Below are positions 112 to 48,707 of a stretch of 64,000 nt of DNA, piece by piece. Under the pieces are notes generated by a model that saw nothing but the letters and a program-made list of their open reading frames with translations, was not told the origin of the DNA and searched no databases. The stretch is taken from assembly GCA_965200175.1 (NCBI GenBank), contig OZ241345.1, positions 2,575,684 to 2,639,683 of the forward strand, read 5' to 3'. Position 1 is the stretch's first letter. Each line of letters begins with the position of its first letter. The translations under genes and the position numbers were made by a program. This stretch comes from Pseudomonadales bacterium (GTDB taxonomy: Bacteria > Pseudomonadota > Gammaproteobacteria > Pseudomonadales > Azotimanducaceae).

Positions 112-170
112 GATCCGGCAAGGTTGGCGCCAATGGCTTTGACGGTTCCCGCAAACGAGGGCAGGCAAGC

Positions 171-1532
171 GTGCTGCAATTGAATCCAGAAGGCTCCGGC
201 GTGCGCAGCGACCCCGACGCCGCCCTGGACTGCTTGGCCGAGATCATCGGCGACACCCCTTTGGTGGAGACCCGCGGCCGGGTGTTCGGCGTCACCGGCG
301 CCCTGATACGCGCCACGGCGCCCAACGTGCGCATTGGCGATCTTTGCCTTCTGCAGCCACCGGGCAGGCACACCGAACAGGAGTCGTCCCTGGCCGAGGT
401 GGTGGGGTTCGAAAAACGCATCGTGCTGCTCTCCCCAATGGGCAACACGACGGGCATTGCATCCGACACCGAGGTGATCGCCACCGGCCGCACCCACGAG
501 GTGCCCGTGGGCCCGCAACTGCTCGGCAAGGTGCTCAACGGCTTGGGCCAGCCTTTGGACGGTCGGCACCTGCCGTGCCCGACCACCTATCCGGTGTTGG
601 CGGAACCGCCTGATCCGATGCGGCGCAAGGTGATCGACACGCCGTTGCAGATGGGCCTGCGGGTCTTCGACGGCTTCCTGACCATTGGCGAAGGTCAACG
701 GATGGGCATTTTCGCAGCCGCAGGCGGTGGCAAGAGCACGCTGCTGTCGATGCTGATCCGCAACTCCGCGGCGGACGTGAAGATTCTCGCGCTGATCGGC
801 GAGCGCGGTCGGGAGGTGCGTGAGTTCATTGAGCACGACATCGGCGAGGAGGGACTGAAGCAGTCGGTGATCGTGGTTGCCACGTCAGAACGGCCGGCCA
901 TGGAGCGGCTGAAGGCCGCCCACGTCGCGACCGCCATCGCGGAGTACTTTCGCGACCAAGGGCAACGTGTCCTGCTGATGATGGACTCCGTCACCCGTTT
1001 CGCCCGAGCGCAGCGCGAAATCGGCTTGGCGGCTGGCGAGCCGCCGACCCGGCGCGGCTTTCCGCCCTCCGTGTTCACCGCACTGCCGCAATTGATGGAG
1101 CGGGCGGGCCAGTCGGAGAAGGGCTCGATCACCGCGCTCTACACGGTGCTGGTCGAGGGCGACGACATGACCGAGCCCGTTGCCGACGAGACCCGCTCCA
1201 TACTCGACGGCCACATCATCCTGTCGAGAAAGCTGGCTCAAGCCACCCACTACCCCGCAGTGGACGTGCTGGGCAGCGTCAGCCGCGTGATGAACAACAT
1301 TGTGGACAAGGAGCACCTGCGCGTGGCCGGGCGCTTGCGGGAACTGCTCGCCAAGCATCAATCAGTCGAGCTGCTGCTCAAGATCGGTGAGTACAAGCAG
1401 GGTTCCGACGCCGACGCTGACGAGGCGGTTCGCAAGGTGGACCAGATCAATGCCGTGCTGAAGCAGGGCCTGCACGAATTCTCCTCATTCGAGGAGACGC
1501 TTGAACGCATGCGCGCCGTGGCGGACGGCTGA
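171..1532 (+). CDS. sctN: T3SS ATPase SctN (YscN/EscN/FliI family)
   Basis: 453-aa ORF with Walker [10 protein letters not shown] and Walker [14 protein letters not shown]1-type ATPase core throughout. GTG start. Confidence 0.95.
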
Positions 1533-1537
1533 CCGGC

Positions 1538-1999
1538 GTGCTTGAGGAACTGCTGACGGTCAAGCGCCGCCGCGAGGACGACGCCATCGCAGCGCTCGCC
1601 CAGGCACGGCAGGCACTGGAACGGCAGCAGTCCCTGATGGAAGCCAAACGACGCGAACTCGAGGAGTACAAGGTGTGGCGCCAGCAGGAGGCCGAACGGT
1701 TGTTCGAGGCGGTGCGCAAGCAGGAGGTGTCCCGCGCCAAACTGGAACGCTACCGGCAGGAAGTCGCCCTGCTCCAGCAGCGGGAGGTGCAGCTTGGGGA
1801 GGAGCTCATTGCCGCTGAGCGCGAAGTCGACGCCGCCAAATCCAACGTCGCCACGGCGGAGCGCCAACGCATGGATGCGCACAGGGACGTCGTGAAGTTC
1901 GAGGAGTACCAAAAGCAACTGCTTGAGGAGGAGGCCGCCGAAGCCAGCCGCAGGGAGGAGGCGGAACTGGAGGACGTGACTGCCGTCCGCCGCCGTTAG
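1538..1999 (+). CDS. sctO: T3SS stalk protein SctO (YscO/FliJ-like coiled coil)
   Basis: 153 aa, all-helical and rich in R/E/Q/A. Starts 5 nt after sctN, the conserved position of sctO. Confidence 0.7.
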   Translation: MLEELLTVKRRREDDAIAALAQARQALERQQSLMEAKRRELEEYKVWRQQEAERLFEAVRKQEVSRAKLERYRQEVALLQQREVQLGEELIAAEREVDAAKSNVATAERQRMDAHRDVVKFEEYQKQLLEEEAAEASRREEAELEDVTAVRRR

Positions 2000-3804: not shown

Positions 3805-3811
3805 CCGCGGA

Positions 3812-4069
3812 TCACTTGTTGTTGTAGTAGTTCCAGAACCGCTCCAGAATCGTGTCCGCAGCGTCCAGACCCTGCTTGACGGCGTTCAAGCGATTGTATT
3901 CGTCCGGCGGCGCCCCTAGGCGCAGCTTCGCCTCAATCCGCATCCTATGTTCAGTGATCGACGACCGGACGGAGTCCCGAAGGGCGCCTTGGGCGTCGTC
4001 CTTAAGGCCCTTCTCGATGTCTGTCGTGAAGGCTTCCGAATCGTCTTGGTTGGTCTGGGGTTCAGCCAT
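3812..4069 (-). CDS. Small T3SS-associated helical protein, YscE/PscE-like (needle co-chaperone-like)
   Basis: ATG at 4069 preceded by AGGAAAG. 85 aa. The segment LRLGAPPDEYNRLNAVKQGLDAADTIL resembles, from memory, YscE (MMRGGDAKQYQVWQRESKALESAIAII) and PscE. Ends 7 nt upstream of sctC. Confidence 0.4.
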   Translation of the reverse strand: MAEPQTNQDDSEAFTTDIEKGLKDDAQGALRDSVRSSITEHRMRIEAKLRLGAPPDEYNRLNAVKQGLDAADTILERFWNYYNNK

Positions 4070-4246
4070 GATGTCTTTCCTCTTTCCAAGGGTTGTCAGG
4101 GGGTTCGCAGTCATCAGTGTCGCAGGCGTGGGGTGCCGCCAAGCACACGGGCTTGAGCGAGCGGGTGATTTGGCCTGGTTGAACGCCGACGCACGGGCGA
4201 CCTTGGGGACGCCTCCCAAATCGCTGCTGTTTCAAGGAGGGTCGGC

Positions 4247-4756
4247 CTAGACCCGCATGTTGCCGGCTGCCGGTGCGTCGCCGCCATCGCCGGACGGCTC
4301 GCTCGGTTCCGAATCGATGGTCTGGGCGGCCTTGGACAGGGAGCCTTCAGCCAAGCTCGCGATGAAGCCTTCCGCCACGTTCACGAAGTCCTCAATGAGC
4401 GCCTCGAACTGCGGCAGGCGCAAGGTCTCCAACGGCTCCTCGCGCATCAGAACGATGCCGCCCCCGGCCGGATCCAGGGCCAAGGTGGCGCCGGCGGTCT
4501 GGGCGAAGGCGTAGTTGGCCCTGAGCAACTCCGCATAGAGTGCGTTGGCGTTCTCCGCCGGCTCAGGGGCGAGCACGCTGTATATGTAAAGGCTGCCTTC
4601 GCCGCCGCTCATTTCCAAGCTGACCGGCACGTCGTCGAACATGAGGTTGCAGCGCTGCTGGTCGTCAAAGGTCATGTCCTCGAGACCGACGGCGGCGCCA
4701 AATTCCTTGATCAAGCTGTGCAACACTGAATCAGACACGATGATGGACTCCTTCAT
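4247..4756 (-). CDS. T3SS class I chaperone (CesT/SycE/Tir-chaperone-like)
   Basis: 169 aa and acidic. The pattern LGLEDMTFDDQQRCNLMFDDVPVSLEM...GSLYIYSVL...LLRANY is typical of the CesT/SycE fold. The ATG overlaps the upstream stop (ATGA). Confidence 0.7.
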   Translation of the reverse strand: MKESIIVSDSVLHSLIKEFGAAVGLEDMTFDDQQRCNLMFDDVPVSLEMSGGEGSLYIYSVLAPEPAENANALYAELLRANYAFAQTAGATLALDPAGGGIVLMREEPLETLRLPQFEALIEDFVNVAEGFIASLAEGSLSKAAQTIDSEPSEPSGDGGDAPAAGNMRV

Positions 4757-5367
4757 ACTCTTCTGCGCGTTCTGCGGACGCCGCGCGCGGCGCGCGGGTC
4801 CGCGTCAAAGCGCTTGGGGGATTCGACGTTCTCCGGCGCGTCGGCGGCCGGACGGGCCAAGGGGTTGGATTGGGGTTGGGCAAACTGCCGCTCCAGCTTG
4901 CCGATGCGCGCGAGGGCGTCGTCGTTGCCCTGCTTATGCTCCGTGGCCTCGCAGACCCCTTCCGCGGCATCAAGCGCCAAACGGGCGTTTTCGCGCTCGC
5001 CCAAGGCCAAGTAGCACTCGCAGGCGTGAATGGACGGCCAAGGGTTGGTGGCGTCCAACATGGCGGTCATGCCGAACGCCACTAGGGCCTTGCGGTGTTG
5101 TTCGGACATTTGCTGGGTGGCCGCCAAGCCCATCCAGAAGCGGTGCTCCGCATGGTCGTTCTCCACGAGAAACAGGAACAGCTGCTCGGCCTGCTCGTAT
5201 TTGCGCTGCCGATAGGCGTTGTGGGCCAAACCATAGACCGCCTCCAGCTCGTCGCTCGTGTATCCGCGCACCGAACCCAAGGAGGCGCCTTCCAGAAGGC
5301 ACTTTTTCGTCAACTCCTCCACAGTTTGGAGTTGCTCATCGGTAATGGTTTCAAACGGATCGGACAT
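4753..5367 (-). CDS. T3SS class II translocator chaperone (TPR; SycD/LcrH/CesD family), copy 2
   Basis: TPR repeats (YGLAHNAYRQRKYEQAEQLFLFLVENDHAEHRFWMGLAATQQ...). ATG at 5367 with GAGG upstream; an alternative TTG lies at 5385. Confidence 0.8.
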   Translation of the reverse strand: MSDPFETITDEQLQTVEELTKKCLLEGASLGSVRGYTSDELEAVYGLAHNAYRQRKYEQAEQLFLFLVENDHAEHRFWMGLAATQQMSEQHRKALVAFGMTAMLDATNPWPSIHACECYLALGERENARLALDAAEGVCEATEHKQGNDDALARIGKLERQFAQPQSNPLARPAADAPENVESPKRFDADPRAARGVRRTRRRV

Positions 5368-5416
5368 CGGCCTGGACCTCGGCAAAAACGAATGACGCCC
5401 ACCCTCCGGCCACGGC

Positions 5417-6418
5417 CTAACGGGTGCTGCTGATCACTTTTTCGATCTTGTCCTTGTTGGCGTTGATGATGGAATTGGCCGCCTCAATGGCGTTGTTGGC
5501 TTGGGACAGCACGTTCTTGGTCTTGGACATGTGCAGGCTGTTGTCATTGCCCATCTGCTCGATGAAGTGCTTCAGGTTCTCCTCAAGGCGCTCCGCGCTG
5601 TCCTTGTGTATCTTGCCCCCCTCCATCCAGACCTTAGTGTACCCACCGCTGTCCCGGGTGACCAATGCGCCGGTCTCGGTTTCCCCCCGTCCCCACAACG
5701 GGATGCCGCGCGTGTGATTGTGCTCCCCCAAGTCCGTGCCATTTGCCCTCGCCGGGGATTGAGCGCCGAACTCCGCACTCGACCAATCCGGATGCGACGG
5801 CCCCCACTGCGGCCAAGCATCGTTCCAGGAATACCTGTGCCCGTCACCGTTCTTGTCAGATCCGTCAATCTGCTTGGGGTCGTCCCAGCCCGGGGAGTTC
5901 TGCCCGGTGGAAAGGCTGGGGACGTGCCATTTTTCCGGGTAAAGGAAGTTGCCGTCCTGGTCGAACTGCAGCCCGGACGCTTGGACCAGCGCCTGCGGCA
6001 CATGGTCCAGCTCCGTGGCGCCGACGGTGAAGTTAACGGTTTCAACCGGGATGGACTCCTCGACCACATTCGTGAGAAATTCGGCTTGAGCCTTCGTGAA
6101 GGTGATTTGATCGCCGGGGCCGTAATCGACCCCGCCGCCCTTGATCAAGTCCTTTTGTTGGGTGACGGTCTGCAGGATCTCTCGCGCCTGGCGCATGTTG
6201 TCGACGAACTTCTGCGCCTCGTTGAGCCGGTCGAAACCCACCTCGTTGATCACCCCGGCGCGGGCGATGTTGGCAAACGCCAAGGCATCCGACGGGTTCA
6301 TGGCCACCCCGCCGACGGTGATGGTGCCGTTGGCCCGGTCGGCGTCGGTCATCCTGATGTCCTGCGAGAGCAGGAGGTGGTTCGGTTGGGCGGCGGGCGC
6401 ATTGGATATGCTGTTCAT
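5417..6418 (-). CDS. Hydrophilic T3SS secreted protein (tip or hydrophilic translocator candidate)
   Basis: 333 aa with no hydrophobic segment. Helical ends (C-terminus NVLSQANNAIEAANSIINANKDKIEKVISS) flank a central Trp/Gly/Pro/Asp-rich domain. Lies between the hydrophobic translocator and a class II chaperone. Confidence 0.5.
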   Translation of the reverse strand: MNSISNAPAAQPNHLLLSQDIRMTDADRANGTITVGGVAMNPSDALAFANIARAGVINEVGFDRLNEAQKFVDNMRQAREILQTVTQQKDLIKGGGVDYGPGDQITFTKAQAEFLTNVVEESIPVETVNFTVGATELDHVPQALVQASGLQFDQDGNFLYPEKWHVPSLSTGQNSPGWDDPKQIDGSDKNGDGHRYSWNDAWPQWGPSHPDWSSAEFGAQSPARANGTDLGEHNHTRGIPLWGRGETETGALVTRDSGGYTKVWMEGGKIHKDSAERLEENLKHFIEQMGNDNSLHMSKTKNVLSQANNAIEAANSIINANKDKIEKVISSTR

Positions 6419-6447
6419 GGCTTTGTCCCGGCGGGCTCCTCTTCTCC

Positions 6448-7731
6448 CTAGGCTGGCGTTGCGATCTTTGAGGCGGTTTGGTTCGAGTTGGAAATGATGT
6501 CATTGACCGCCGCCCTGGACTCCTGCATCTGCTGCAGCAGCTTCCTGATCCGGTGCAGCTCCTCCATGGTGATCTCCTGAATGCGCGCCAAGTCGGCCCG
6601 CGCCTCATCAGCGTCCGCTTGGGCGTTTGACGCTTGGTAGTTGTACGCCCCGGTTGCGGCTTGGGTGCCGGCACCGCCGGCCTGGCCCGCAGCTTGGGCG
6701 AGTTGCGCCACTATCCTGAGCTTGTTGGCGGTCTGAACCACCTTTGCGGACGTTGAGGCCGCCTGGCCTGCCGTCGTGGTCGCACTGGTGCTGGCCGTCG
6801 AAGCCGTCGAGGCCGCCGCGGTGGCCGCCGTGGTGCTGGCCGTCGAGGAGGCCGTGGCCGCCGTGGTGCTGGCCGTGCTGGTGGCCGCCGCCGTCGCGGT
6901 TGATGCGGTGCTGGTCGCCGCCGCCGCCGTGGTCGCGCCGCCGCTGGTGGCCGCCGAGGAGGTCTGGGCCGCCGTGCCGGCCACGCTGGCGCCTGCCGAC
7001 GCCACCCCGCCCGACGCCGCCCCGAAGCTCATGACCATCGCGATGAGGTTGACGACGAGCAGGGCGACGGCCATGGAGATCTGGAAGATCATGGCGTCCT
7101 TGCCGCTGAGGTTCATCGCCTCCATGGCTTTTTCGGTGGCGCCGGTCTCCTGGGCGATCATCATGGCGGTCATCGCCGTCGCGGCCACGGCCAGCGGCGC
7201 CGCCGCCGCTCCGCCCGATGCCACGGCGACGACGCCGACCGCCAGCCAAGCCAGGCCGACGCCGATCCAGCCGAATATCTTGCCGATCTTGCTGCTGTTC
7301 TTGGCCTTCTCCCGCGCCTTCTCCATCTCCTCGATCTTATTCAGCGTCTCCTCGTGCTTCTCCTCGCGCTCCAGCTTCTGCGACTCAATGCGGGCCTCCG
7401 ACTCCTTGACGGTCTCAAGCCCCATCTTGGACTGCATCGCATACAGGAGCAGAACCAGCTGCTCCGCGTTCATCTTCTTGGGCAAAGCCAGCGCCGGCGG
7501 CGGGGTGGCGCCGTCGTCGCCTTCAACAGCGAGGTTCACGAAGGCGGAATCCGGCGCATCCACGCGCAGCCCGCTGCCGGCGGCCCGCTGGGCCGGCCGG
7601 TTTTGAGCGGCCTGGGAAACACCCTGCGGATCGGCAACCCCCGGATCACGCCTTACCGCATTCTCCGCCTCCGCCTCCGTTGCAGCGGGAGGGAGGGGCG
7701 CGTGGGCAACGCCGCTGACGCCATCATTCAT
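6448..7731 (-). CDS. T3SS hydrophobic translocator (YopB/EspD/SseC-like pore former)
   Basis: Two long hydrophobic segments (IFGWIGVGLAWLAVGVVAVASGG..., AMIFQISMAVALLVVNLIAMVMSF). N-terminal coiled coil, Ala/Ser/Thr-rich tract, C-terminal helix. ATG at 7731 overlaps the chaperone stop. Confidence 0.7.
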   Translation of the reverse strand: MNDGVSGVAHAPLPPAATEAEAENAVRRDPGVADPQGVSQAAQNRPAQRAAGSGLRVDAPDSAFVNLAVEGDDGATPPPALALPKKMNAEQLVLLLYAMQSKMGLETVKESEARIESQKLEREEKHEETLNKIEEMEKAREKAKNSSKIGKIFGWIGVGLAWLAVGVVAVASGGAAAAPLAVAATAMTAMMIAQETGATEKAMEAMNLSGKDAMIFQISMAVALLVVNLIAMVMSFGAASGGVASAGASVAGTAAQTSSAATSGGATTAAAATSTASTATAAATSTASTTAATASSTASTTAATAAASTASTASTSATTTAGQAASTSAKVVQTANKLRIVAQLAQAAGQAGGAGTQAATGAYNYQASNAQADADEARADLARIQEITMEELHRIRKLLQQMQESRAAVNDIISNSNQTASKIATPA

Positions 7732-31672: not shown

Positions 31673-32512
31673 GTGAGTTTCCAAGCGCAGACATACCCGC
31701 CGCAGCCGCCGACCCCTCCCTCCACCCTCATCGAGAGCGCCTTGATGGATTGGGTGTTGGACGATCTCGGCGCTCAGCGGCAGCTCAACGTGCTGGACAT
31801 CGGCCCGGCCATGCCGGAGACCGTCGAGCTTCTGCATGCCAAGGGCTGTCGCCTGGGCATTGCCGACCTGTTCGAGACCGGGATCATCGAGCAGCAGCGC
31901 CACTTAGACCATGACAGCTTGGCAGACCGCTTCAAGGAAGCGCTTTGGATGGTCAACGGACCGCTGCACGTCTGCCTGCTCTGGGACTTTCTCAACTATC
32001 TCTCCCCCCAGGCGCTAAGCGCCTTCAACCAAGCCCTCAAGCCCTGGATCACCCGGCGCACCCGGGCCCATGCATTCTGCGTCGCCAAGCGGTCCGCCCC
32101 CCTAATGCAACATCGCTATGGCGTGACCGGCAAGGGCCAAATCCTTCAGACCAGGGCGCCGGAGCAGCCACAGCCCAGCCCACCGGCCCCTTGGCGGCAC
32201 GTCATCCGCCAACTGAACCTGTTCGAGGCCGTCAGGGGCACCTTGCGAACCGGGGGAGTCGTCGAGCTCATCTTGCGAGGGGCGGAACCGCAATCCGCCG
32301 AGACCGCGGCGCAACAGCTTGGGGCCGACGCCGGCCGCGCTCAGGGCCAAGCACCAAAAACCGCAGCGCGACAACCGAGCCGCGCACGACCGGCAAATGC
32401 CGGCGCTCGTGCCAGCGAAGCGCCAAGCCTAGGCAGGGCTGGAGGCCACGGTGGCACTCCCCAGGAGGCCCCCGAAGCGAAGCCCCAAATCCGTCGGCGG
32501 GCCATCGGTTAG
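31673..32512 (+). CDS. Hypothetical protein (possible Rossmann/methyltransferase-like N-terminal half, disordered basic tail)
   Basis: 279-aa ORF starting 22 nt after the bactofilin gene. LNVLDIGPAMPETVELL resembles SAM-binding motif I only weakly. Confidence 0.4.
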   Translation: MSFQAQTYPPQPPTPPSTLIESALMDWVLDDLGAQRQLNVLDIGPAMPETVELLHAKGCRLGIADLFETGIIEQQRHLDHDSLADRFKEALWMVNGPLHVCLLWDFLNYLSPQALSAFNQALKPWITRRTRAHAFCVAKRSAPLMQHRYGVTGKGQILQTRAPEQPQPSPPAPWRHVIRQLNLFEAVRGTLRTGGVVELILRGAEPQSAETAAQQLGADAGRAQGQAPKTAARQPSRARPANAGARASEAPSLGRAGGHGGTPQEAPEAKPQIRRRAIG

Positions 32513-32749
32513 CGTCCCGCTTCGTCCAAGGATCACTAGATGTTCGTCGGCATCCACGGCAGCTACCACTGGGAACTGGACGCGGGCGAACTGCGCATCA
32601 GCAGCGCCGACCCCAACGTGGGGCTGCTGAAGTCCTACCCGGCCCCCGCGGCATTCAACAACGCCGAGCAAGCGCAGTGGTTCGTCCAGGGGCGGATCGA
32701 CATGAACGCCGAGGAGCTGGCCGCGGCGGCAAAGGCCAAGCCAATCCAT

Positions 32750-33646
32750 TCATAGTCCGGACCCACGCATCACCAGCCCGATTTCACTGGCGGTTTCAAA
32801 CTCCGATTCAACGACCAGCCCATGGCGCTTGGCGAACCGGCCAAGGGCCGCCCGCTCCCGGCGGCTGATGTCCCGACGCCGAGCCAGCGCTTGGCGCGAG
32901 CCGGTGAGGACCAGCCAGTCCGCCGGCGCATCCGCCAAGGTCGCCAGCAAGCGGGGCTGCTGGCGCGCCACCACCGGCACCAGCTTCAGCAGGAAGGCCG
33001 CGTCATAGCGCTTGATGCCGGTCTGGCTCTCCAAGGCCGCCCAGCCGTCGCCAATGTCCCAAACGCAGCCTTCCAACAGGCCCGGCGGCGTTTGCGGGCA
33101 GGCGTTCACGGCTTCAACGCAACGCGCATCGCGGTCGCAGGCCACGTAGCGCCGCAAAGCGCCGCCAACCCGGTCGAACGGAAACAGCAAGGGCATCAAG
33201 CCGCAGCCGACGTCCAGGAGGTTGGCGCATTCGCCCCAGACCGGCTGGGTGCGGTCGAGGAATTCAGCCAGGTCCGGCCACCGTTCGGCGGTGCTGGCGT
33301 GAGTTCGGGCCAGGGCCTCGCGCGCCGCTTGGCACGGCGCGCCCGAGACGGCGCCGCGCAAACGTTCAAGCGCCTCGGAAAACTCATCGGCATCCTGGCG
33401 ATAGCGCCGCAATCGATAGTAGATGTCCTTCCTGGCCTGCGACGCCGCCCGCCGATAGAGGCGGGTCCGGGCCAAGGCGCGGGCCGAGGGATTCCTCCGA
33501 GCCAACGCCCGCAACGCCTCATGGCCGCGCCACGCCCCTTCGATGCAGCCACGCGCCTGATCCGCGCCAATGCGGTAGCGCCGGGCCGCCGTCTCGGCCA
33601 ACCGCTCGGCCAATTGCGCCAAGGCCGGCTCCAAGGGGTCACTCAT
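32750..33646 (-). CDS. FmrO-family-like methyltransferase (16S rRNA m7G1405 methyltransferase-like, ArmA/RmtB/Sgm type)
   Basis: ATG at 33646. Blocks that match RmtB from memory: THASTAERWPDL (RmtB LHASTKERLAEL), LLDVGCGLMPLLF (VLDIACGLNPLAL), YVACDRD (GCDIH), DAAFLLKLVPVVARQQ (DLALIFKLLPLLEREQ). Confidence 0.6.
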   Translation of the reverse strand: MSDPLEPALAQLAERLAETAARRYRIGADQARGCIEGAWRGHEALRALARRNPSARALARTRLYRRAASQARKDIYYRLRRYRQDADEFSEALERLRGAVSGAPCQAAREALARTHASTAERWPDLAEFLDRTQPVWGECANLLDVGCGLMPLLFPFDRVGGALRRYVACDRDARCVEAVNACPQTPPGLLEGCVWDIGDGWAALESQTGIKRYDAAFLLKLVPVVARQQPRLLATLADAPADWLVLTGSRQALARRRDISRRERAALGRFAKRHGLVVESEFETASEIGLVMRGSGL

Positions 33647-34676
33647 GCAGCGCCTCCCAAGTGGGGCCGAGCCGACTCTCCGGAAACCAGCGCTGGTGGA
33701 CGTCGAGCAGCTCCGCCAAGCGGCCGTTGAGGTCACCGCCTCGCTCCAGCAGAGCGCGCAGCTCGCGAATGGTGTGACAGATGGTCCACAAGTTGTGCGC
33801 CTTGAGCGCCTCAAAATCCGCAAACACCGCCTCCGCCGTGGGCGCCGCAGCGCAGTGCGGGCAGGGGCAGCGGAACTCGCCCGCCAGCACCCGCCCCGGA
33901 TCGGACAAAGCGCCGTAGGGGGTCATGTACCAACCGCCGCGCGCGTAGTGGGCATAGGAGGAGGAGTCAAAGACATCCGCCCCCAGCGCCACCATGAAGG
34001 GCAGCTCCACCGGCTCGCCGGCGCCATAGACGTGCATCGGCACCCGCTCGCCAACCAACCGGCGCGCATCGCGCAGCACGGCGCCGGCGAAGGCTAGGCT
34101 GTGCGCCCGGTTGAAGAAGGGCACCAGGCTGCCGATGGCCAGGTACTCCACTTCAAGCTCGGCCATGTGGGCGGCGCTGTCGCGGCGGAGGTCCAGAAAG
34201 CGTCCGCCCTGCTGCACCCCGGCCACCAAGCCGCGCTCGGCGATGGCCAACGCCTGGCGCACCCGCTTGTGCGTGGTGCGCAGCTTGCCGAGCGCCACGG
34301 TCCGCGCATCCCCCGGGGGCGTGATGAGGTCCAGCGGCGAGATGATGTCGCTGCCGATGCGGTCCTGAAAGCGCACGATGTCCGCATTCTTCAGGTACAG
34401 CCGTCGGGTCAAGCCCTGAAAGGCCCCCGAGTCGGTGGCGATCAGGCCCGCAAAGCCCGCATGGGCCTTGAGTGACGAGGGGCCCGTAAGCCGTTCGCGC
34501 AAGTCGCGCTGCTTGTAGAGAAAGTAGGCGTTGACGATGCAGCCGTCGATGTCCTCGCGGGCCAGTTGGAACACCGGCTCCCGGGGTTGGTAAACCGGCA
34601 GGAACAGGGGCAGGGCGTGACGCGCCCCGTCCTTGGTCAACAAGGTTCGCCGGCTGCGGCTCGAATCGATGCTCAC
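33639..34676 (-). CDS. tRNA-guanine transglycosylase (TGT) superfamily protein, divergent (archaeosine-TGT/DpdA-like)
   Basis: GTG at 34676. ATDSGAFQ (compare DSGGFQ), YGAGEPVELPFMVALGADVFDSSSY (compare GVGxPxxL...G.DMFD), Zn motif CPCPHC plus a downstream HNLW. Confidence 0.7.
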   Translation of the reverse strand: MSIDSSRSRRTLLTKDGARHALPLFLPVYQPREPVFQLAREDIDGCIVNAYFLYKQRDLRERLTGPSSLKAHAGFAGLIATDSGAFQGLTRRLYLKNADIVRFQDRIGSDIISPLDLITPPGDARTVALGKLRTTHKRVRQALAIAERGLVAGVQQGGRFLDLRRDSAAHMAELEVEYLAIGSLVPFFNRAHSLAFAGAVLRDARRLVGERVPMHVYGAGEPVELPFMVALGADVFDSSSYAHYARGGWYMTPYGALSDPGRVLAGEFRCPCPHCAAAPTAEAVFADFEALKAHNLWTICHTIRELRALLERGGDLNGRLAELLDVHQRWFPESRLGPTWEALHE

Positions 34677-35935
34677 CGGGCGGACGCCCGCGCAGCGCCT
34701 GCCGGCGGCAGGCGCAATAGGCCCACTGCCACGATGGCCAGGCAAATCCCGACAATCACCGTCACGAACGCCGGCTGGTAGCTGCCGGTGGCGTCGAACA
34801 CCCGTGAAGCGAAGGGGAAGCCGAACAGCGTGAACGGCGTGGTCAGCGGCGTCATCAAACCCATCACCCGGGCAAAGTCCGCCCGGCCGAAGAGCGTGCC
34901 GATGAAGATCGTCCACATGGGCAGGCCCGCGCCATAGCCGAGCCCGTAGAACAACGCCGCAACCATCAGCCCGGCGGGGTTCGCCAACGTCAGGATCAGC
35001 GTCAGGCCGACGACTTGCGAAATCAGGGCGATGGCCATCAGCAGCCGCTGGTTCAACACATCAGCCAAGACGCCGAACAGCGGCTTGGCCAAGGCCGCCA
35101 TCAGCGTGGCCGCGGCCACCACTGAGGAGGCCTGGGCAGCGGACAGGCCCAGATCCGTGATGTGGGCGTGCAGGGCCAGCAGCACGGCGCCGACGCTGAA
35201 AAAGCTCGGCCCGACGATGGCCACGAGCAACCAGATGCGGCGGTCCCGCAGCGCCCGGGCGAAAGTCCATGTGGAGGCCGGCTCAACCGGCTCGGCAGCG
35301 CCATCCGCCAGCCGTTGCCCATCCGGCAGCAGGCCCTTCTCCTCCGGGCGGAAGACGGCCGCCTTCCACGCCAAGGGGATCAGCACCGCCCCCAAGCCCA
35401 GGCCCATCAAGGTCACCGCCCAACGCCAGCCCTGGGTTTCCACCAGCCAGGACACGATCGGCACCAGCACCGCGCCGGAGATGGAGATGCCGAGTTGGGA
35501 GATGCCCAAGGCCGTGCCCCGCCGCTTGACGAACCAGTTGGCGATCATCGCGTTGCTGGGCAACGGGCCGATCAGGGTGCTGGCCACGGCCAGCGCCAAG
35601 CCGAAGGTCAAGTAGAGATGCCACAGATGCCGGACCTGCCCGAACGCGACAAAGCCCAGCGTCAGCGCCGCGATGCCGATGGCCAGCAGCTTGCGGATGG
35701 GCGTGCGCAGGATCAGCTTGCCCACCCAAGGGCTTAGCGCAGCCACCACAAAGGTTTGCAGGGAGAAGGCCAAGGACACCGCGAAGCGGTCCGCATCCAA
35801 GGCTTCGCTCAAGGGCTTCTGCAGCACGCCATAGGTGTAGAACATGCCCCCGACGGTGAACTGGGTCATGAAAGTGAAGCCGACGATGGGCCAGCCAAAG
35901 AAGAGCGTTCGCGGCGTACCCGAGGGCGTGCTCAA
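34673..35935 (-). CDS. MFS transporter (12 TM; oxalate/formate antiporter-like subfamily)
   Basis: 420 aa and hydrophobic throughout. Typical MFS loop motif NWFVKRRGTALGI. Confidence 0.85.
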   Translation of the reverse strand: MSTPSGTPRTLFFGWPIVGFTFMTQFTVGGMFYTYGVLQKPLSEALDADRFAVSLAFSLQTFVVAALSPWVGKLILRTPIRKLLAIGIAALTLGFVAFGQVRHLWHLYLTFGLALAVASTLIGPLPSNAMIANWFVKRRGTALGISQLGISISGAVLVPIVSWLVETQGWRWAVTLMGLGLGAVLIPLAWKAAVFRPEEKGLLPDGQRLADGAAEPVEPASTWTFARALRDRRIWLLVAIVGPSFFSVGAVLLALHAHITDLGLSAAQASSVVAAATLMAALAKPLFGVLADVLNQRLLMAIALISQVVGLTLILTLANPAGLMVAALFYGLGYGAGLPMWTIFIGTLFGRADFARVMGLMTPLTTPFTLFGFPFASRVFDATGSYQPAFVTVIVGICLAIVAVGLLRLPPAGAARASAR

Positions 35936-35992
35936 GAGTCATCCCTTTCGATTCGAGCTGATCATTCTATAGACTTGCCCGGTTCCGCCAAA

Positions 35993-36108
35993 GCGCACCC
36001 GCTTCGCGGGTGCGTTGGAGTTTCGCTGCGCGAAACTCTGCGCACGTTGCGCAAGTCAGATTCCGAGATGTTTCTGAGCCCGCACAAAGCGCGACCTGAC
36101 GGTCGCGC
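35993..36108. repeat. Family A palindromic element
   Basis: GCGCACCC-GCTTC-GCGGGTGCG, GGAGTTTCGC-TGC-GCGAAACTC, GTCAGATTCCGAGATGTTTCTGAGC, CGCGACC-TGAC-GGTCGCG. Confidence 0.85.
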
Positions 36109-36207
36109 CTCCGCTGCGTGTCGGTTCGTCATGCCCTCGCTCCGGGGGTCGTGGCCCGAAACAAGCGAACTCCCGGAGCGAGAATGCGAACGCCCATCAG
36201 GGCGGCT

Positions 36208-36576
36208 TCAATTCCCGTCATCAGCCGGCTCGTCAAAGTCCAGCCACCCCACTTGGTAGCCGGGCGGCAGTGGTTCATTGCGCTCAAGGCGTCCGGCGAA
36301 GGACTTCAGATCCTCAATGATCATGAGCAGGTAGGGGTCGCTGGCGGGCCGGACGATGTCGGTGAGCAGCAGCAACTGCTCGACGCACCACCAGAACACG
36401 TCTTCGCCCGGCAGCACCGGCCGGCGCGGCGGCATGACCTCGACTTGCTCCTCGTCATCAAGAACCCGGCTCAGGAACTCCATGACTTCGGCATTGCCCT
36501 GCACGGCGGGCGAGGCGTTCCTGAGGGTCTCGATCAGCTGCGGCTTGTGCCGCTCCATTAGTTCCTGGGCTTCCAT
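36208..36576 (-). CDS. Hypothetical acidic protein
   Basis: ORF with ATG at 36576 (MEAQELMERH...). No recognisable motif. Confidence 0.4.
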   Translation of the reverse strand: MEAQELMERHKPQLIETLRNASPAVQGNAEVMEFLSRVLDDEEQVEVMPPRRPVLPGEDVFWWCVEQLLLLTDIVRPASDPYLLMIIEDLKSFAGRLERNEPLPPGYQVGWLDFDEPADDGN

Positions 36577-36752
36577 GCGGGGCTCTCCATTGGCTGGTTG
36601 GAACCTCAATTATCGAAGGAAACAGGAGCAGGGGAAGTCGATTTCGCTGCACGCCTTGTGCGACTTTCGCCATTCCTGCGCCATTTCTGCACCGATGCGC
36701 GCCCATACCCGTTACAGTAGCGGCAAACCGCTGCAACCAAAGGAGAACCGCC

Positions 36753-43491: not shown

Positions 43492-43821
43492 ATGACACTT
43501 ACGCTTGTGATCTCAAGCACGCATATTGGACGAACGATCACGACGGACTTCAGAAAGTTGAAATCCCGTTTGAGCGAGTACATCCGAATGGTGCGCGAAG
43601 GAACCAAATCGAAGGTCACATTTAATGGCGAGACCGGGGCGGAGAATCGCCCTCCTACGCTTCTAGCAGACCATCACATTGATCACGAGTTGAAGCTTCA
43701 GACGCAAGCTGGGAAAGTGCGTCTTGGTGCATGGAATCAACCGGAGGTGTACACCATCACCTCCGTGCAACTACCAGAAGGCGCCGCACCAACTCTGCTC
43801 AGTGAATCCAGGGGCGAGTGA
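43492..43821 (+). CDS. Phd/YefM/VapB-type antitoxin-like protein with no cognate toxin gene
   Basis: ITTDFRKLKSRLSEYIRMVREG...KVTFNGE resembles a Phd/YefM N-terminus. The C-terminal QAGKVRLG...LPEGAAPTLLSESRGE resembles the VapC-binding tail. The downstream space is taken by the convergent ImmA gene. Confidence 0.45.
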   Translation: MTLTLVISSTHIGRTITTDFRKLKSRLSEYIRMVREGTKSKVTFNGETGAENRPPTLLADHHIDHELKLQTQAGKVRLGAWNQPEVYTITSVQLPEGAAPTLLSESRGE

Positions 43822-44589
43822 CTAGGCTTCTAGGGCTATTCGCCGTTGTGCCTCTATTTGCTGCTGGTCGACATCGTCGATCAAGGCCAAGTTCCTCAAG
43901 TGCCGAAGGGTGGCCTCAAAGCCGGTATGTAATCGGCGCGCCACACGGTCCACTCCTTCTTCGGTTGCCAGAGAGCAATCCAACTCCACAACGCTTTGTT
44001 GAATAAGCGGTTCGGGCATAAGAAGCATCGCCGCAAAGGCATTCGCGCGCCTCTCGATACCGGCTGGCGCCCAAGGTCCACTGGCGATGGCCAAACGGCG
44101 GCCAACTTCACGGTCGTAAAGGACATGGCAGAGTTCATGCGCCAGGGTGAATCGACGCCCTTGCGAAGTCCCATTGAATAGATTGCCGCGATTCCACGCA
44201 ATTCCCGGTCTGTGCCCGGGTCCCGCAATTGCAACGCCCCTAACACTGGCGTCAGTCAACCACACTTCTTTGACTTCTATGCCCAATCGTTCAAGGAGGC
44301 CATCCACATCAACATACCTGCCGGTCAGGAAACGACCATCGAGTTGGTCATGAAGACGGTCAGCAAGATCGTATCCCTGTGACCAAGGAGCCAATGTCGC
44401 GATCATCGGCTCCGGGCGATCGTCTATCGTAGCCAACTCTGCGCTTGAACGATCCCCAGTCAGGCCGACAATAAGATTACAGAGCGTCACGATATCCTCG
44501 CTGGTCACCCGGGGAGCCAAGGAGCCAAACATCAGGGCCGCATGGCAGGAACCCTCAACGACCAGACTCGGATCGCCTTCATGGGCCAA
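43822..44589 (-). CDS. ImmA/IrrE family zinc metallopeptidase (COG2856-like)
   Basis: HEXXH motif FTLAHELCHVLYD plus the downstream ERRANAFAAMLLMP. The start is only a TTG, and the N-terminus may be truncated. Confidence 0.75.
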   Translation of the reverse strand: MAHEGDPSLVVEGSCHAALMFGSLAPRVTSEDIVTLCNLIVGLTGDRSSAELATIDDRPEPMIATLAPWSQGYDLADRLHDQLDGRFLTGRYVDVDGLLERLGIEVKEVWLTDASVRGVAIAGPGHRPGIAWNRGNLFNGTSQGRRFTLAHELCHVLYDREVGRRLAIASGPWAPAGIERRANAFAAMLLMPEPLIQQSVVELDCSLATEEGVDRVARRLHTGFEATLRHLRNLALIDDVDQQQIEAQRRIALEA

Positions 44590-44691
44590 CAGCTCTTCCT
44601 GCTACTCCATCGACAAGTTGCTTGAGATGCACTTGCGAACTCGCCGCCACCCGCCTCGGACGGTTTGGACATCAACGCCCAGCCGCGCCAG

Positions 44692-45387
44692 TCACATGTG
44701 CAGTTCGTGATTTCGCGGCCTGCGCAATCGGCCAATCGCCTGCGAGAGTTTGCGTATTCGACCGGAATCTGGCGCAACGGAAGTAAGATACTCAGAAGCC
44801 CCTTGAAGTATCTGATAGAGGGGCTCTGCAACAACCCGCGGACTTAGGGTTTCTGAGCTTGGTTGAGAAATATCGAAAACAACATGGTCCGGCGCACCGG
44901 CCACTTGCCCAGGACCCCACGACACTTCAATGGCATCACGAAGCCGACGAAACACAATATCCGGAAACACACCACCCTCGCGGGCAGCGCATAGAGCGTG
45001 GCGCGACCACCAATGCTGCCACGCGGCTTCTCGGCCATCCTCCTCTGACTCATCAATCGCGAACGGCGGAACAGGGTCGTTACGAAGTGCGCGCCAACCC
45101 GTGTCCTCTAGGCTGCGGCAAGGCAGGCGCTCCTCATGCAATAGGGGATCCCAATTCTGGGTAAACCACTCCAACAAGGGAAGCAGATACCAGTAAACGT
45201 GATCAACCCGCTCCGATTGCTCAAGGTGTGCGCAGAGGTTGACGCCACGAACCCAGATCTGAAAGCCGCCCCAAGAAATGGACTGCTCTGAGTCCGCGGC
45301 CTCACCACCATCGGGATCATCCAGAAACGCTATCCTTACTGCGAAACGGCTAGTGTCCCCAGCAAGACGTTCCCAACGAATCGCCAT
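44692..45387 (-). CDS. Hypothetical Trp-rich protein, unknown family
   Basis: ATG at 45387, 231 aa (MAIRWERLAGDTSRF...WYLLPLLEWFTQNWDPLL...). Starts 11 nt after the upstream small ORF. Confidence 0.55.
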   Translation of the reverse strand: MAIRWERLAGDTSRFAVRIAFLDDPDGGEAADSEQSISWGGFQIWVRGVNLCAHLEQSERVDHVYWYLLPLLEWFTQNWDPLLHEERLPCRSLEDTGWRALRNDPVPPFAIDESEEDGREAAWQHWWSRHALCAAREGGVFPDIVFRRLRDAIEVSWGPGQVAGAPDHVVFDISQPSSETLSPRVVAEPLYQILQGASEYLTSVAPDSGRIRKLSQAIGRLRRPRNHELHM

Positions 45388-45397
45388 CGAAAAACCC

Positions 45398-45694
45398 TCA
45401 GTGCCAATAGCGTCTGACGTTACGCCGCGACACAGTTCGGTCGGCCTTCCACTGCTGGACAACTGAAGTGGGAACCTCTTTCCAAGCCACCGGATAGCCG
45501 TGCCAAAGGTCACCCTCGGATCGCTGCGCGCAATACGCCCGCCCATCGTGGGTCGCGTATCGCTTGTTGTCGTGCAAAGCGCTCCCCCGCAGGAGTTCGT
45601 CGGCGAATGGCCGCACCTCCGGCGGGCAAAGACTGCCTCGCCGACCACGTTGCCACGGCTCGGAGTGCTTGGGGTTGCTCCTGTACTCCATCAT
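45398..45694 (-). CDS. Small basic protein with a WHGYP motif, unknown family
   Basis: 98 aa: MMEYRSNPKHSEPWQRGRRGSLCP...GRAYCAQRSEGDLWHGYPVAWKEVP... Confidence 0.5.
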   Translation of the reverse strand: MMEYRSNPKHSEPWQRGRRGSLCPPEVRPFADELLRGSALHDNKRYATHDGRAYCAQRSEGDLWHGYPVAWKEVPTSVVQQWKADRTVSRRNVRRYWH

Positions 45695-46128
45695 TGCACC
45701 GTCAAGGTGAGCGGGAATAGTCAGTAATGCTCTCACGACAGTCAAGAGACTGCGCACCCGCTTTGCGGGAGCGGTTGACGAGCTGATCGAATCACCGTCA
45801 AAGCCGTCGCCAACGATAGGACTTACCGCCTACCGCCGAAGTCTCTGCACCGATTGCGGGCCACGCCATGGGGAGCGCTGCGAGCCGGTTGCTATGCCGG
45901 GGTCGCCACCAAGAAGCCCATCGGAGGCGGTGTGCGGCGATACTGGAATACCTGCTAGCCACGCGGCGGATGCTACGCTGTGGTTCAACTTCATTCGCTA
46001 ACACTGCCTGAGCCTGCACGGCTTAGCCTCAACGCCAAGGTGAGGTGGAGTAGATGGTCTCCAAGCCGAGGTGTCCGCCCTCAAAGCCACACAGATGAGA
46101 TAATGACCCTTGGCGATTGCGCAACTGT

Positions 46129-46200
46129 TTCATATTCTTCGATCACGCCATCGGCCTGCCGTTCCTGCGGCGGGCCGATCGGGAGTTGGGGTTGGCTTGA
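46129..46200 (+). repeat. Direct repeat, right copy (orphan diverged copy of the flippase-like gene 3' end)
   Basis: TTCATATTCTTCGATCACGCCATCGGCCTGCCGTTCCTGCGGCGGGCCGATCGGGAGTTGGGGTTGGCTTGA. Confidence 0.85.
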
Positions 46201-46209
46201 GGTCGGGAC

Positions 46210-47910
46210 ATGAAGAGCACCGCCTACTACGACCAGAACGCTGATGCGCTAGTTGATCAGTATGGCGCGCTGAATGCCGATGCCGTGCATCAGGCTTGGG
46301 CTCGCAAACATCTTCCGAAGGAACCGGGCTTCGCCTGTGACATTGGTGCAGGGACCGGGCGCGACGCCAACTGGTTGGCGCAGCAGGGTTGGGAAGTGGT
46401 CGCCGTCGAACCCAGCGCGATGCGCGACAAAGCTGCCTCAACGACCCACCCAAGGGTGACTTGGCTTAATGACGCCTTGCCCGGCTTGACTGCCCTCCGG
46501 GCGCTCGGTCGAAGATTCGACCTGATTCTGCTAAGCGCAGTTTGGATGCATGTCGCGCCCAAGGAGCGGGAAAGAGCGTTCCGCATCCTGTCCGAACTGC
46601 TCAATCCATCGGGTCTGTTGGTGATCACCCTGCGCAAGGGCGGGGACGAACGTGAAAGCGAGGATCGCGGCTTTCATCCCACTTCCGCTGACGAATTGAC
46701 TGGCTACGCGAATCGGCGGGCCGTCGCGTACAAGGGCCGTAGCGAAGCTGACGATCTTGTGCGCGGCCATGTGCGTTGGCAAACGCTGGTGTTTGAAATG
46801 CCGGATGACGGCACCGGCAGCCTGCCCTTGCTGCGCCACGTCATCGTCAACGACAACAAGTCGTCCACCTACAAACTGGGCTTGTTGCGGGTGCTGGTGC
46901 GAATAGCGGAAAGCGCTCCGGGCATCGTCGTTGCGCGCACCGATGACTATGTGGACATTCCCTTCGGCGTGGTCGGCCTGTACTGGATCAATCAGTACCG
47001 GCGCTTGGTGGCTCGGAACGTTCCCCAACTGCCAGGCCACAGGACGGGCTATGGTTGGGCCAAGGGCGCGTTTTATCAGCTAATGAAGGAAATCTCCCCT
47101 TCGGACCTGCGGCTCGGCACACGCTTCAACGCCGATCGGGGGGAAGTGGTAACCCGCGCCATTGCCGACGCATGCCACAACATCAAGGCAATGCCGGCCA
47201 AGCACATCACTTACCCCGGATCGCCCGACCAACCGGTCTTCGAGTGCGACTTGAAACCGGTTCGCGGACCAAGGAAGCACGTTGTCCTGTCGAAGGAGTT
47301 TCTGACCCAGTTCGGCCGGTTTCGGATACGGGGCCCGCTTTGGCAGACGCTCGGGCAATACGCCTGCTGGCTGGATCCGGTAATCGTTAGGGAATGGTCT
47401 CAGATGATGACGGGTTGGGGTGTATCGGACGTGGGAAACCAGGAACGCTTGGCCCTGGACTGGCAGGAAGGCACCCGCGACACCAAGGTGGCTATCGAAC
47501 GCGCAGAGGCATTGCGGCATGAAGGATTCGACCTAACCTGCGTTTGGTCAGCCTCCCGGATCAGGTCGTCCTTCCAAATCGATCACTGCTTTCCTTGGGC
47601 AAGGTGGTGCAACAATGACTTGTGGAATCTGCTCCCGACCAAGGTGGACATCAACCGCCGAAAGCTCGACAAGCTGCCTTCCTCGTTAGCCATGTCCGAC
47701 GCTCGCACGCGCATCATCGATTGGTGGAGCGAGGCTTGGGAACGCTCGGCGCAGTCCGAGCGGTTCTTCATGGAGGCGGGATACTCCCTGCCCGGTCTTT
47801 CCAGCGACCGTCCATCATTGGATGAAATCTACCAAGCGACATTGCACCAACGGGCACGGCTCAAGCAGGATCAACAGCTTGTGGAGTGGTCCCTATCGGG
47901 ACTTGGATAG
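46210..47910 (+). CDS. Fusion protein: class I SAM-dependent methyltransferase, winged-helix-like middle region, C-terminal HNH endonuclease
   Basis: Motif I CDIGAGTGRDANWLAQQGWEVVAVEP with post-I/II blocks (DLILLSAVWMH, LLNPSGLLVI). Middle STYKLGLLRVLVRIAE. C-terminal QIDHCFPWARWCNNDLWNLLPTKVDINRRKLDKLP (HNH/HNN). Confidence 0.7.
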   Translation: MKSTAYYDQNADALVDQYGALNADAVHQAWARKHLPKEPGFACDIGAGTGRDANWLAQQGWEVVAVEPSAMRDKAASTTHPRVTWLNDALPGLTALRALGRRFDLILLSAVWMHVAPKERERAFRILSELLNPSGLLVITLRKGGDERESEDRGFHPTSADELTGYANRRAVAYKGRSEADDLVRGHVRWQTLVFEMPDDGTGSLPLLRHVIVNDNKSSTYKLGLLRVLVRIAESAPGIVVARTDDYVDIPFGVVGLYWINQYRRLVARNVPQLPGHRTGYGWAKGAFYQLMKEISPSDLRLGTRFNADRGEVVTRAIADACHNIKAMPAKHITYPGSPDQPVFECDLKPVRGPRKHVVLSKEFLTQFGRFRIRGPLWQTLGQYACWLDPVIVREWSQMMTGWGVSDVGNQERLALDWQEGTRDTKVAIERAEALRHEGFDLTCVWSASRIRSSFQIDHCFPWARWCNNDLWNLLPTKVDINRRKLDKLPSSLAMSDARTRIIDWWSEAWERSAQSERFFMEAGYSLPGLSSDRPSLDEIYQATLHQRARLKQDQQLVEWSLSGLG

Positions 47911-47942
47911 CCGCTTGCCCGCGCAACCTTGGCTCACTCCCC

Positions 47943-48707
47943 CTACCAACCCCGATGCCCCACCGGCGGCGGATCCTCCGGAGGTCCCGCGAAGCACTGG
48001 GCAATGGCCATCCAGGACCTGGCGGCGTCGCCGACGACGGTGAGGCTGGTCTCGGCGATGTTGCGCCCTTGGGTGACCACATGGGCGAACTCGACGGCGG
48101 AGCCGCGCACGCAATCGGCGTCGGAGGGCTCGTTCCACTCCCACACCGCGCCAGAGGGTGATTCGAGCCGCACGTAGGGTGCCGGCGACGGGGCCTCGAG
48201 GCCGCGGTTAACGAACGTCCAGCCGAAGGTGCGCACGCCGATGTGGCACACGTTGCGGATGCGGTCGCTGTTGCGGCGCTGCGCGCGCAGCAGGTCGTAG
48301 ATATCCTGGCCGTGCGCCCAGGTCTCCATTTGCCGTGCGGTGGCCATCATGGCGATGCCCATGTCCGGCCCGAACCAAGGGGCGCGCAGCGCTGGGTCCG
48401 CTGCATCAAGGGCGTCGCAGAGTTGGGTAAAGTATGAACGCCAGCGATCCAGCAGCGGTCGGCCTTCCAGCGGCTCGGGGTTGGCCGGAATCCCGGCACC
48501 CAGGCCGTCCCGCCATTCCCGGAAGCCGTCCGGATCGATCACCGAGTGCACCGCCCAGCGGTCAGCGTCGTGCAGGTGCTGCACCACCCAGTTGACCGTG
48601 CGGCCCTTGAAGGGCGTCTTAAGCGACCACTGATCGTCGCTTAAGGTGTCTAGGAACGAGAAAAGCTCCGCGCCTTCCTCGCGCAGGTCGTTAACTTGTT
48701 GGTTCAT
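47943..48707 (-). CDS. DinB/maleylpyruvate-isomerase-N-terminal-like metal-binding protein (TIGR03084-like)
   Basis: 254 aa with an N-terminal four-helix DinB-like pattern (EGAELFSFLDTLSDDQWSLKTPFKGRTVNWVVQHLH). Confidence 0.55.
   Translation of the reverse strand: MNQQVNDLREEGAELFSFLDTLSDDQWSLKTPFKGRTVNWVVQHLHDADRWAVHSVIDPDGFREWRDGLGAGIPANPEPLEGRPLLDRWRSYFTQLCDALDAADPALRAPWFGPDMGIAMMATARQMETWAHGQDIYDLLRAQRRNSDRIRNVCHIGVRTFGWTFVNRGLEAPSPAPYVRLESPSGAVWEWNEPSDADCVRGSAVEFAHVVTQGRNIAETSLTVVGDAARSWMAIAQCFAGPPEDPPPVGHRGW

Follow-up and report, generated by a model that had tools for sequence, protein, structure and literature searches.

Pairing of an archaeosine-transglycosylase-like enzyme with an FmrO-family methyltransferase points to a possible guanine-7 nucleic-acid modification pathway in diverse bacteria

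A 64,000-nucleotide stretch of the genome of a Pseudomonadales bacterium (contig OZ241345.1, positions 2,575,684 to 2,639,683; hereafter the window) carries a gene for a protein resembling tRNA-guanine transglycosylases (TGTs), followed by an overlapping gene for a methyltransferase related to the FmrO family, here called MT. These two genes behave as a single, conserved functional unit: they are neighbours with coupled translation, their products co-evolve, and in places they are fused. Such a pair suggests a new pathway of guanine-7 modification in nucleic acids, and not an ordinary resistance cassette. An earlier, sequence-only reading of the window had proposed a guanine-7 module in which both enzymes are hard-wired to a transporter of the major facilitator superfamily (MFS), encoded by the preceding gene. 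The enzyme pair has withstood our analysis, as it is conserved, co-evolving, fused in places and linked to genes for the synthesis of 7-cyano-7-deazaguanine (preQ0). The transporter has not, because it accompanies the pair in a single clade only. That reading also knew of no described system of this kind, and our full-text literature searches likewise returned no description of a TGT-like/FmrO-like pairing. In a 2026 genome-mining preprint on 7-deazapurine gene clusters, TGT figures only through a filter for nucleic-acid modification and FmrO is not mentioned. The pair is thus apparently undescribed, and it unites enzyme families that are already known, together with the established precursor preQ0, in a new and widespread combination.

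The list of open reading frames (ORFs) and direct reading of the letters agree that the three minus-strand genes of the window overlap in series, exactly as had been claimed. The MFS gene (34673-35935; 420 amino acids, TTG start) is the first of the operon, and its TGA stop codon forms a GTGA overlap (34676-34673) with the GTG start of the TGT-like gene (33639-34676; 345 amino acids). The TGA stop of the latter overlaps the ATG start of the MT gene (32750-33646; 298 amino acids) within ATGAGTGA (33646-33639), and a Shine-Dalgarno-like GGGAGG motif is located 7 nucleotides upstream of that ATG. These starts match the gene calls in related genomes, where P0001 has 345 amino acids and P0154 has 420 amino acids at 100% identity. 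Stop/start overlaps are frequent in GC-rich operons, and an overlap is by itself unremarkable. What goes beyond chance is the recurrence of the TGT-MT junction across phyla.

We scanned one genome per species with the TGT-like protein and examined the flanks of the resulting 71 loci by means of ORFs and hidden Markov models. An FmrO-like gene is present in 61 of the approximately 66 loci for which a flank is available, and no MT gene without a TGT-like gene was found in the surveyed loci. The TGT-like gene precedes the MT gene in 52 of 58 loci, mostly with an overlap, and the junction measures between -26 and +36 nucleotides (overlap to gap) in 49 of the 58; in the remaining loci the MT gene is upstream, divergent or as far as 9 kb away. 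The pairwise identities of the two proteins are strongly correlated (r=0.86), with means of 54% for the TGT-like protein and 36% for MT. The closest loci, with TGT-like proteins of 88-95% identity, belong to 'Candidatus Azophilus' and related Pseudomonadales metagenome-assembled genomes (MAGs), the lineage from which the window therefore comes. Hundreds of TGT-like homologues, of about 340-360 amino acids and 55-65% identity, occur in very different bacteria. Taxa bearing the pair include Actinomycetota, Alpha-, Gamma- and 'Delta'-proteobacteria, Planctomycetota (Brocadiaceae), Acidobacteriota, Bacteroidota, Sumerlaeota, Omnitrophota, Lentisphaerota, Chloroflexota and Bacillota, which amounts to more than ten phyla. 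Nevertheless, the pair is rare and patchy, being found in about 70 of 185,579 species genomes.

An exhaustive search with a profile of the MT family uncovered two natural TGT-MT fusions, P0396 (617 amino acids) and P0405 (686 amino acids), which are independent of each other. Both have the TGT domain at the N-terminus and MT at the C-terminus, with one ORF of the respective contig encoding the whole protein; the linker of P0405 is rich in glycine and alanine. A third candidate, P0395 (622 amino acids), was rejected as a gene-calling artefact because its N-terminal half is arginine-rich junk without a Pfam match. An analogy is provided by MnmC, a bifunctional enzyme whose two domains act in turn on one tRNA base. 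There, too, the two activities occur as adjacent genes or as one fused protein, implying consecutive action on one substrate, although the folds and chemistry of MnmC are unrelated to those of the TGT-MT pair. The gene for P0396 (339-2192 in locus L082, which spans 1-6463) is flanked on one side by the 3' end of a gene for 16S rRNA (1-157) and on the other by genes for tRNA-Ile(GAU) and tRNA-Ala(UGC) (2245-2677), and the start of the 23S gene follows 4 kb later. However, the 16S gene is separated from the fusion gene by a strong hairpin resembling a terminator and by a TATAAT resembling a promoter element. Co-transcription with rRNA is therefore unsupported, and the position within an rRNA operon is only a weak hint.

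A second recurrent feature of these loci is the presence of preQ0 synthesis genes. In 16 loci a gene for QueC is no farther than 10 kb from the pair, and the same holds for QueE in 12 loci and for QueD in at least 7. The QueC-linked loci come from actinomycetes, Solirubrobacteraceae, Bacteroidia/Chitinophagales and one deltaproteobacterium. In Actinokineospora the genes for QueC, QueE and QueD are divergent and adjoin the pair, and in one locus (L081) QueC, the FmrO-like protein and the TGT-like protein are encoded in that order by overlapping genes of one operon. A gene for QueF (Pfam match of 5.8e-22) lies directly upstream of the TGT-like gene in three loci (L049, L069 and L039). The flank in Nocardia panacis is free of Que genes, and a Vut_1 (YhhQ-family) gene with a weak Pfam match is located there about 6 kb from the pair.

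The TGT-like protein retains the features expected of a base-exchange enzyme. Its match to the Pfam TGT model (PF01702) is strong (2.6e-38; 132.5 bits against a gathering threshold of 26.3), and the hallmarks noted in the earlier reading are confirmed in full, with TDSGAFQ spanning residues 81-87, YGAGEP...GADVFDSSSY 217-241 and CPCPHC 270-275, along with H294. In an alignment of 25 homologues (A1), D82, D116, Q156, D237, C270, C272, C275 and H294 are invariant. The first four align with Asp95, Asp130, Gln169 and Asp249 of archaeosine TGT (ArcTGT), and the last four align with its zinc site. From this correspondence, D237 is the predicted equivalent of the nucleophile and D82 that of the general acid/base, while D116 and Q156 are the residues predicted to recognize the base. 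The best match in the PDB is ArcTGT from P. horikoshii (1iq8, 1.2e-39), and bacterial and eukaryotic TGTs follow at about 1e-8, in keeping with the earlier remark that the protein is far from bacterial queuine TGT. An AF2 model (pLDDT 86, pTM 0.88) gave the same picture in Foldseek, with ArcTGT (1iq8/1j2b) as the best match (TMq 0.80-0.82) and bacterial TGTs next. Because the catalytic and zinc residues are invariant and a confident model superposes on ArcTGT, the protein should be an active guanine/7-deazaguanine base-exchange enzyme.

Although ArcTGT is the closest relative both by sequence and by structure, the bacterial family is distinct from it. The catalytic Asp pair, the Asp/Gln base recognition and the Cys3His zinc site are the same, and an IGxxVP pocket motif is similar; moreover, ArcTGT uses preQ0, and preQ0 synthesis genes adjoin the TGT-like family. 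However, the bacterial protein falls under the equivalog cut-off of the NCBIfam TgtA model (TIGR00432; 201.9 bits versus 350) and far under that of bacterial Tgt (TIGR00430; 59.5 versus 306.75 bits). The match spans only 24-327 of the 582-amino-acid 1iq8 chain and 20-336 of the 441-position TgtA model. The protein thus comprises no more than a catalytic TIM barrel with its zinc subdomain, ends at residue 345 without the PUA and other C-terminal RNA-binding domains, and carries a conserved C-terminal helical tail of its own (H327, W330-F331-P332, S334). A further difference from ArcTGT is its near-constant pairing or fusion with an FmrO-like methyltransferase. Genes of this family are now annotated, without evidence, as 'tRNA-guanine transglycosylase' or '7-cyano-7-deazaguanine tRNA-ribosyltransferase'.

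The short form of this enzyme calls to mind DpdA-type DNA modification, in which the TGT-like protein would put preQ0 into DNA and the methyltransferase would modify the DNA further. Both bacterial and phage DpdAs are likewise short, PUA-less TGT homologues and are often clustered with preQ0 synthesis genes (PMC5699537), and methylated deazaguanines occur in phage DNA (PMC10516641). Nevertheless, we judge this explanation to be very unlikely. PADLOC identified no defence system and no Dpd model match, its single result for the protein being a weak match to a generic TGT model (2.6e-05). The family has no matches among PHROGs, and both a scan of viral contigs and a tblastn search of plasmids came back empty; taken together, these searches led us to reject a defence or phage origin. 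No DpdA is among the 53 PDB matches listed for the TGT-like protein. Nor do DpdB, nucleases, helicases, ParB-type proteins or ATPases recur among the top 40 neighbour clusters. Finally, the full Cys3His zinc site is retained, unlike in phage DpdAs, and the partner belongs to an rRNA-methylase family.

For that partner, which the earlier reading had aligned block by block with the FmrO family, the single sequence gives a marginal Pfam match (PF07091; 6.7e-08, 32.7 bits versus a cut-off of 27). More sensitive comparisons are clearer. When a family profile built from 41 orthologues (A2) was compared with the PDB, the only matches were methylases that form 7-methylguanosine (m7G) at position 1405 of 16S rRNA: Sgm (1.6e-23), RmtF (2.4e-19) and RmtC (4.1e-19), then ArmA and RmtB. 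An AF2 model (pLDDT 89.9) likewise gave m7G1405 methylases as all of its top 15 Foldseek matches. The motifs HxSTxER, DxGCGxxP and LKxxP of these enzymes are kept, and H116, S118, E121, R122, D145, G147, G149, P152, K221 and R228 are invariant in the family. As in the relatives, a basic, helical N-terminal domain precedes the Rossmann domain.

The structure of RmtC on the 30S subunit (PMC10288597) permits a comparison of individual residues, which we mapped manually from the family-profile alignment. In RmtC, Ser107 contacts the carboxylate of S-adenosylmethionine (SAM) and Asp160 its ribose, Lys204 touches N7 of G1405, Tyr60 stacks on the base, and Arg211, which matters for activity, touches the phosphate backbone of A1408 (PMC10288597). 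The equivalents in MT are S118 for Ser107, K221 for Lys204 and R228 for Arg211, all three invariant, together with D171 for Asp160 and Y82 for Tyr60, each conserved in at least 90% of sequences. R23, Y24 and R72 in the basic N-terminal region may also match RmtC residues. In contrast, two elements that engage the rRNA differ. His54, which is essential in RmtC and stabilizes the rRNA distortion needed to reach G1405 (PMC10288597), is replaced by an invariant tyrosine (Y76). Residues 237-246 of RmtC, which include Met245 and form the 'pincer' loop that pries open helix 44 (h44) (PMC10288597), correspond to a different, arginine-rich loop, SRxAxxRRxxIxRRE. By its sequence and model, then, MT is a genuine FmrO-family, SAM-dependent methyltransferase with an m7G-type active site, and the conserved residues make both it and the TGT-like enzyme look catalytically competent. 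It represents a separate FmrO subfamily, distinguished by its RNA-docking elements, that travels with the TGT-like gene.

The MFS transporter, by comparison, is less tightly bound to the system. It is a clear member of its superfamily (Pfam MFS_1; 3.8e-34, 118.6 bits against 33.4), and its nearest NCBIfam models are of the L-lactate (SfMCT) and oxalate/formate types, all of them far under their cut-offs; drug-efflux models match weakly. It adjoins the TGT-MT pair in only eight loci, all of the Azophilus clade. Its relatives at 58-63% identity (L077 and L078) are beside neither a TGT-like nor an MT gene and have unrelated neighbours. We therefore rejected the triad as a conserved unit: the triad is confined to one genus-level clade, while the pair recurs widely, and MFS is a lineage-specific addition to it. 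In L077, just as in the window, the transporter gene has a Peptidase_M50 gene in its vicinity, an arrangement suggesting that the MFS gene was there first and that the TGT-MT genes were inserted behind it.

These results bear directly on the second explanation that had been offered for the window, a self-resistance cassette. In this case, the FmrO-like enzyme would make m7G1405 or a nearby methylation in 16S rRNA against aminoglycoside-type antibiotics and the MFS protein would expel the drug, whereas the TGT-like gene would either be a passenger with no related role or encode a second enzyme that protects the target. Membership in the FmrO family and the conserved equivalents of Lys204, Tyr60, Ser107 and Asp160 speak for it, as do a rare, patchy distribution reminiscent of horizontal gene transfer, the presence of an ABC-F-like protein and ATP-binding cassette (ABC) exporters near the pair in actinomycetes, and aminosugar-type genes (DegT, aminotransferase and glycosyltransferase) in L003. 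However, MT scores 61.6 bits with the general NCBIfam Rmt model (NF000466), for which the equivalog cut-off is 250, and it lacks both His54 and the h44 loop. It is also tied to the TGT-like gene to the extent of being fused to it twice. The transporter is neither general nor of an evident drug-efflux type, and the frequent adjacency of QueC, QueE, QueD or QueF genes is left unexplained. The cassette is thereby weakened to the point that we consider it improbable as a whole. Through their match to the FmrO/aminoglycoside-resistance family, MT genes in metagenomes might be wrongly annotated as resistance determinants.

Other neighbours of the pair are diverse. In Brocadiaceae (L053, L057, L059 and L062-L065) the order is glycerate kinase, ThiL, TsaE, TGT-like protein and MT, with HisF downstream; these are the presumed identities of the genes, with names read from representative sequences, and the neighbourhood is of a housekeeping type. 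In Actinokineospora and Nocardia (L001, 1-14505; L079, 1-18584), the pair forms part of a conserved cluster that encodes a polyketide synthase-nonribosomal peptide synthetase (PKS-NRPS), a 3-hydroxyacyl-CoA dehydrogenase, an acyl carrier protein (ACP)-like ORF of about 80 amino acids, a 401-amino-acid protein without a Pfam match, an acyl-CoA dehydrogenase, a 2-oxoglutarate (2OG) oxygenase, an ATP-grasp protein and ABC proteins. An NRPS gene also stands beside the pair in Magnetococcales. In yet another context, genes for a GH65 glycoside phosphorylase and a HAD/beta-phosphoglucomutase-like protein adjoin the TGT-like or FmrO-like gene (L003, 9999-14124; L080, 992-5509; and L020, L035 and L037). 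Pfam matches in L003 and L080 reveal an additional NTP-transferase, sometimes fused to HAD, and the GH65/HAD genes of the other three loci form homologous clusters. These GH65/HAD loci span Alphaproteobacteria, Acidobacteriota and Actinomycetota, and they may reflect either sugar decoration of a product or an unrelated operon that travels along.

Such arrangements would be expected if the pair acted in a small-molecule pathway, wherein the TGT-like enzyme would construct or modify a natural product of the 7-deazapurine nucleoside or base type, with methylation by the FmrO-like enzyme and export by MFS. Besides the clusters just described, including the ABC exporters in the actinomycetes, this proposal can draw on preQ0 being a known precursor of secondary metabolites (PMC5699537), and on the ability of the TGT family to take substrates other than nucleic acids, as Cap10 does. 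Nevertheless, the 'biosynthetic' flanks vary by lineage while the pair is constant, and many loci, such as those of Brocadiaceae, L082, L083 and the window, have no biosynthetic neighbours. The high mean identity of the TGT-like proteins across phyla suggests a universal macromolecular substrate. Moreover, characterized 7-deazapurine clusters do without enzymes of nucleic-acid incorporation, those of the TGT type included (2026 genome-mining preprint), and MT keeps the N-terminal domain of an RNA methylase along with an active site of the base-flipping type. A natural-product role thus seems rather unlikely.

The reading that we prefer is that the conserved unit constitutes a two-enzyme guanine-7 modification module, in which a guanine is replaced by a preQ0-type 7-deazaguanine and the same substrate is methylated. 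We give this model, in its general form, about an even chance of being correct. The TGT-like enzyme would use standard TGT chemistry, with an aspartate nucleophile attacking C1', a covalent ribosyl-enzyme intermediate and a zinc subdomain, and would exchange one specific guanine in a macromolecule, most probably RNA (rRNA or tRNA). The incoming base could be provided in some lineages by the neighbouring QueC, QueD and QueE, with QueF in three loci, and elsewhere would presumably be made or salvaged. The FmrO-like partner, with its m7G-type active site, would carry out SAM-dependent methylation of the same substrate molecule. It probably supplies targeting as well, through an N-terminal domain that is helical and basic, since the transglycosylase no longer has the RNA-binding domains found in archaeal ArcTGT. 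In the window, one promoter would drive the whole operon, with translation coupled from gene to gene, and it is plausible that MFS serves as an importer of the base. The housekeeping-type neighbourhood in Brocadiaceae and, as a weak hint, the position of the P0396 gene beside rRNA and tRNA genes speak for the model. We infer the RNA target, the inserted base, the reaction order, the formation of a complex and the substrate of MFS from these comparisons, and our confidence in any specific target or order of reactions is much less than in the general model. RNA is favored because the parent families act on structured RNA, partners typical of DNA systems do not recur, and the TGT-like protein is highly conserved across phyla.

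Several observations weigh against this two-enzyme model. The choice of RNA is one that we infer from the ancestry of both families, and the target of MT need not be h44 or G1405, because the pincer loop is replaced and His54 has given way to an invariant tyrosine. The sparse distribution of the pair is more what one would expect of an accessory trait, for instance resistance, than of core RNA maturation. Only about one locus in four has preQ0 genes nearby, and none is present in the 64-kb window. Several loci adjoin genes for PKS/NRPS or sugar metabolism, which would be equally compatible with secondary metabolism. A further difficulty is chemical. preQ0 lacks N7, so that its insertion leaves no such atom to be methylated, and the two chemistries are not obviously combinable on one base.

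This difficulty could be overcome in three ways. In the first, the order is that of 'mark and swap': the FmrO-like enzyme would initially methylate N7 of one guanosine, possibly in 16S rRNA, and the resulting m7G, being cationic and an excellent leaving group, would mark the site. The PUA-less TGT-like enzyme would then recognize m7G and replace it irreversibly with preQ0; its pocket for the 7-substituent, which is shaped to hold the 7-cyano group that preQ0 carries, could plausibly take the N7 methyl as well. We regard this particular scheme as unlikely. If true, however, it would be the first case of methylation-activated base exchange and, were the target ribosomal, the first 7-deazaguanine in rRNA. 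In the second, the methyl group is possibly placed elsewhere, for example on the amine of preQ1 where QueF occurs. Alternatively, it is possible that two neighbouring nucleotides are modified.

The 7-deazaguanine systems known so far act on tRNA (queuosine and archaeosine), on DNA (Dpd and phage DpdA) and, as recently found, on protein (Cap10). A widespread bacterial ArcTGT-like enzyme wedded to a homologue of m7G methylases would be a further branch. The pair could bring to light a modified nucleoside or an RNA target not seen before, or a novel means of guiding a transglycosylase to its site, and since its components are two small soluble proteins, the hypothesis is directly testable.

The remaining features of the window concern the surroundings of the operon. 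A sigma-70-like site, TTGGCG-16-TAGAAT (35964..35991, minus strand), precedes the MFS start by about 30 nucleotides. Its identification is by consensus only, and it is the sole such match in the 4.4 kb from 32300 to 36700, for which 0.4 are expected from shuffled sequences; it is the probable promoter of the operon. No Rfam family scored above threshold anywhere in the window, with nothing credible upstream of MFS, and no preQ1 riboswitch was found in 27 related loci; control by a riboswitch was therefore rejected. We also considered a fourth operon gene, a 106-amino-acid ORF (32429-32749, minus strand) whose start codon follows the stop of MT without a gap (TGAATG). Among the neighbour clusters conserved in Azophilus loci this ORF is not represented, and part of it overlaps the convergent gene at 31673-32512 at that gene's 3' end; it is probably not a gene and was treated as non-coding.

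The genes flanking the operon, at 31673-32512 (plus strand, 279 amino acids) and 36208-36609 (minus strand, 133 amino acids), have no Pfam match, and the former is found in all eight Azophilus-clade loci. Farther away, the start of the window encodes a type III secretion ATPase (171-1532, plus strand; ATP-synt_ab and T3SS_ATPase_C, 1.5e-89) and a CesT-family chaperone of the same type of system (4247-4756, minus strand; 4e-25), because of which this MAG lineage seems to carry a type III secretion system. Lastly, a stretch of low GC content (43800-48000; 0.587-0.605 versus about 0.66) encodes an IrrE/Peptidase_M78 protein and a 566-amino-acid fusion of a methyltransferase with an HNH endonuclease, and looks like a small mobile or defence island.

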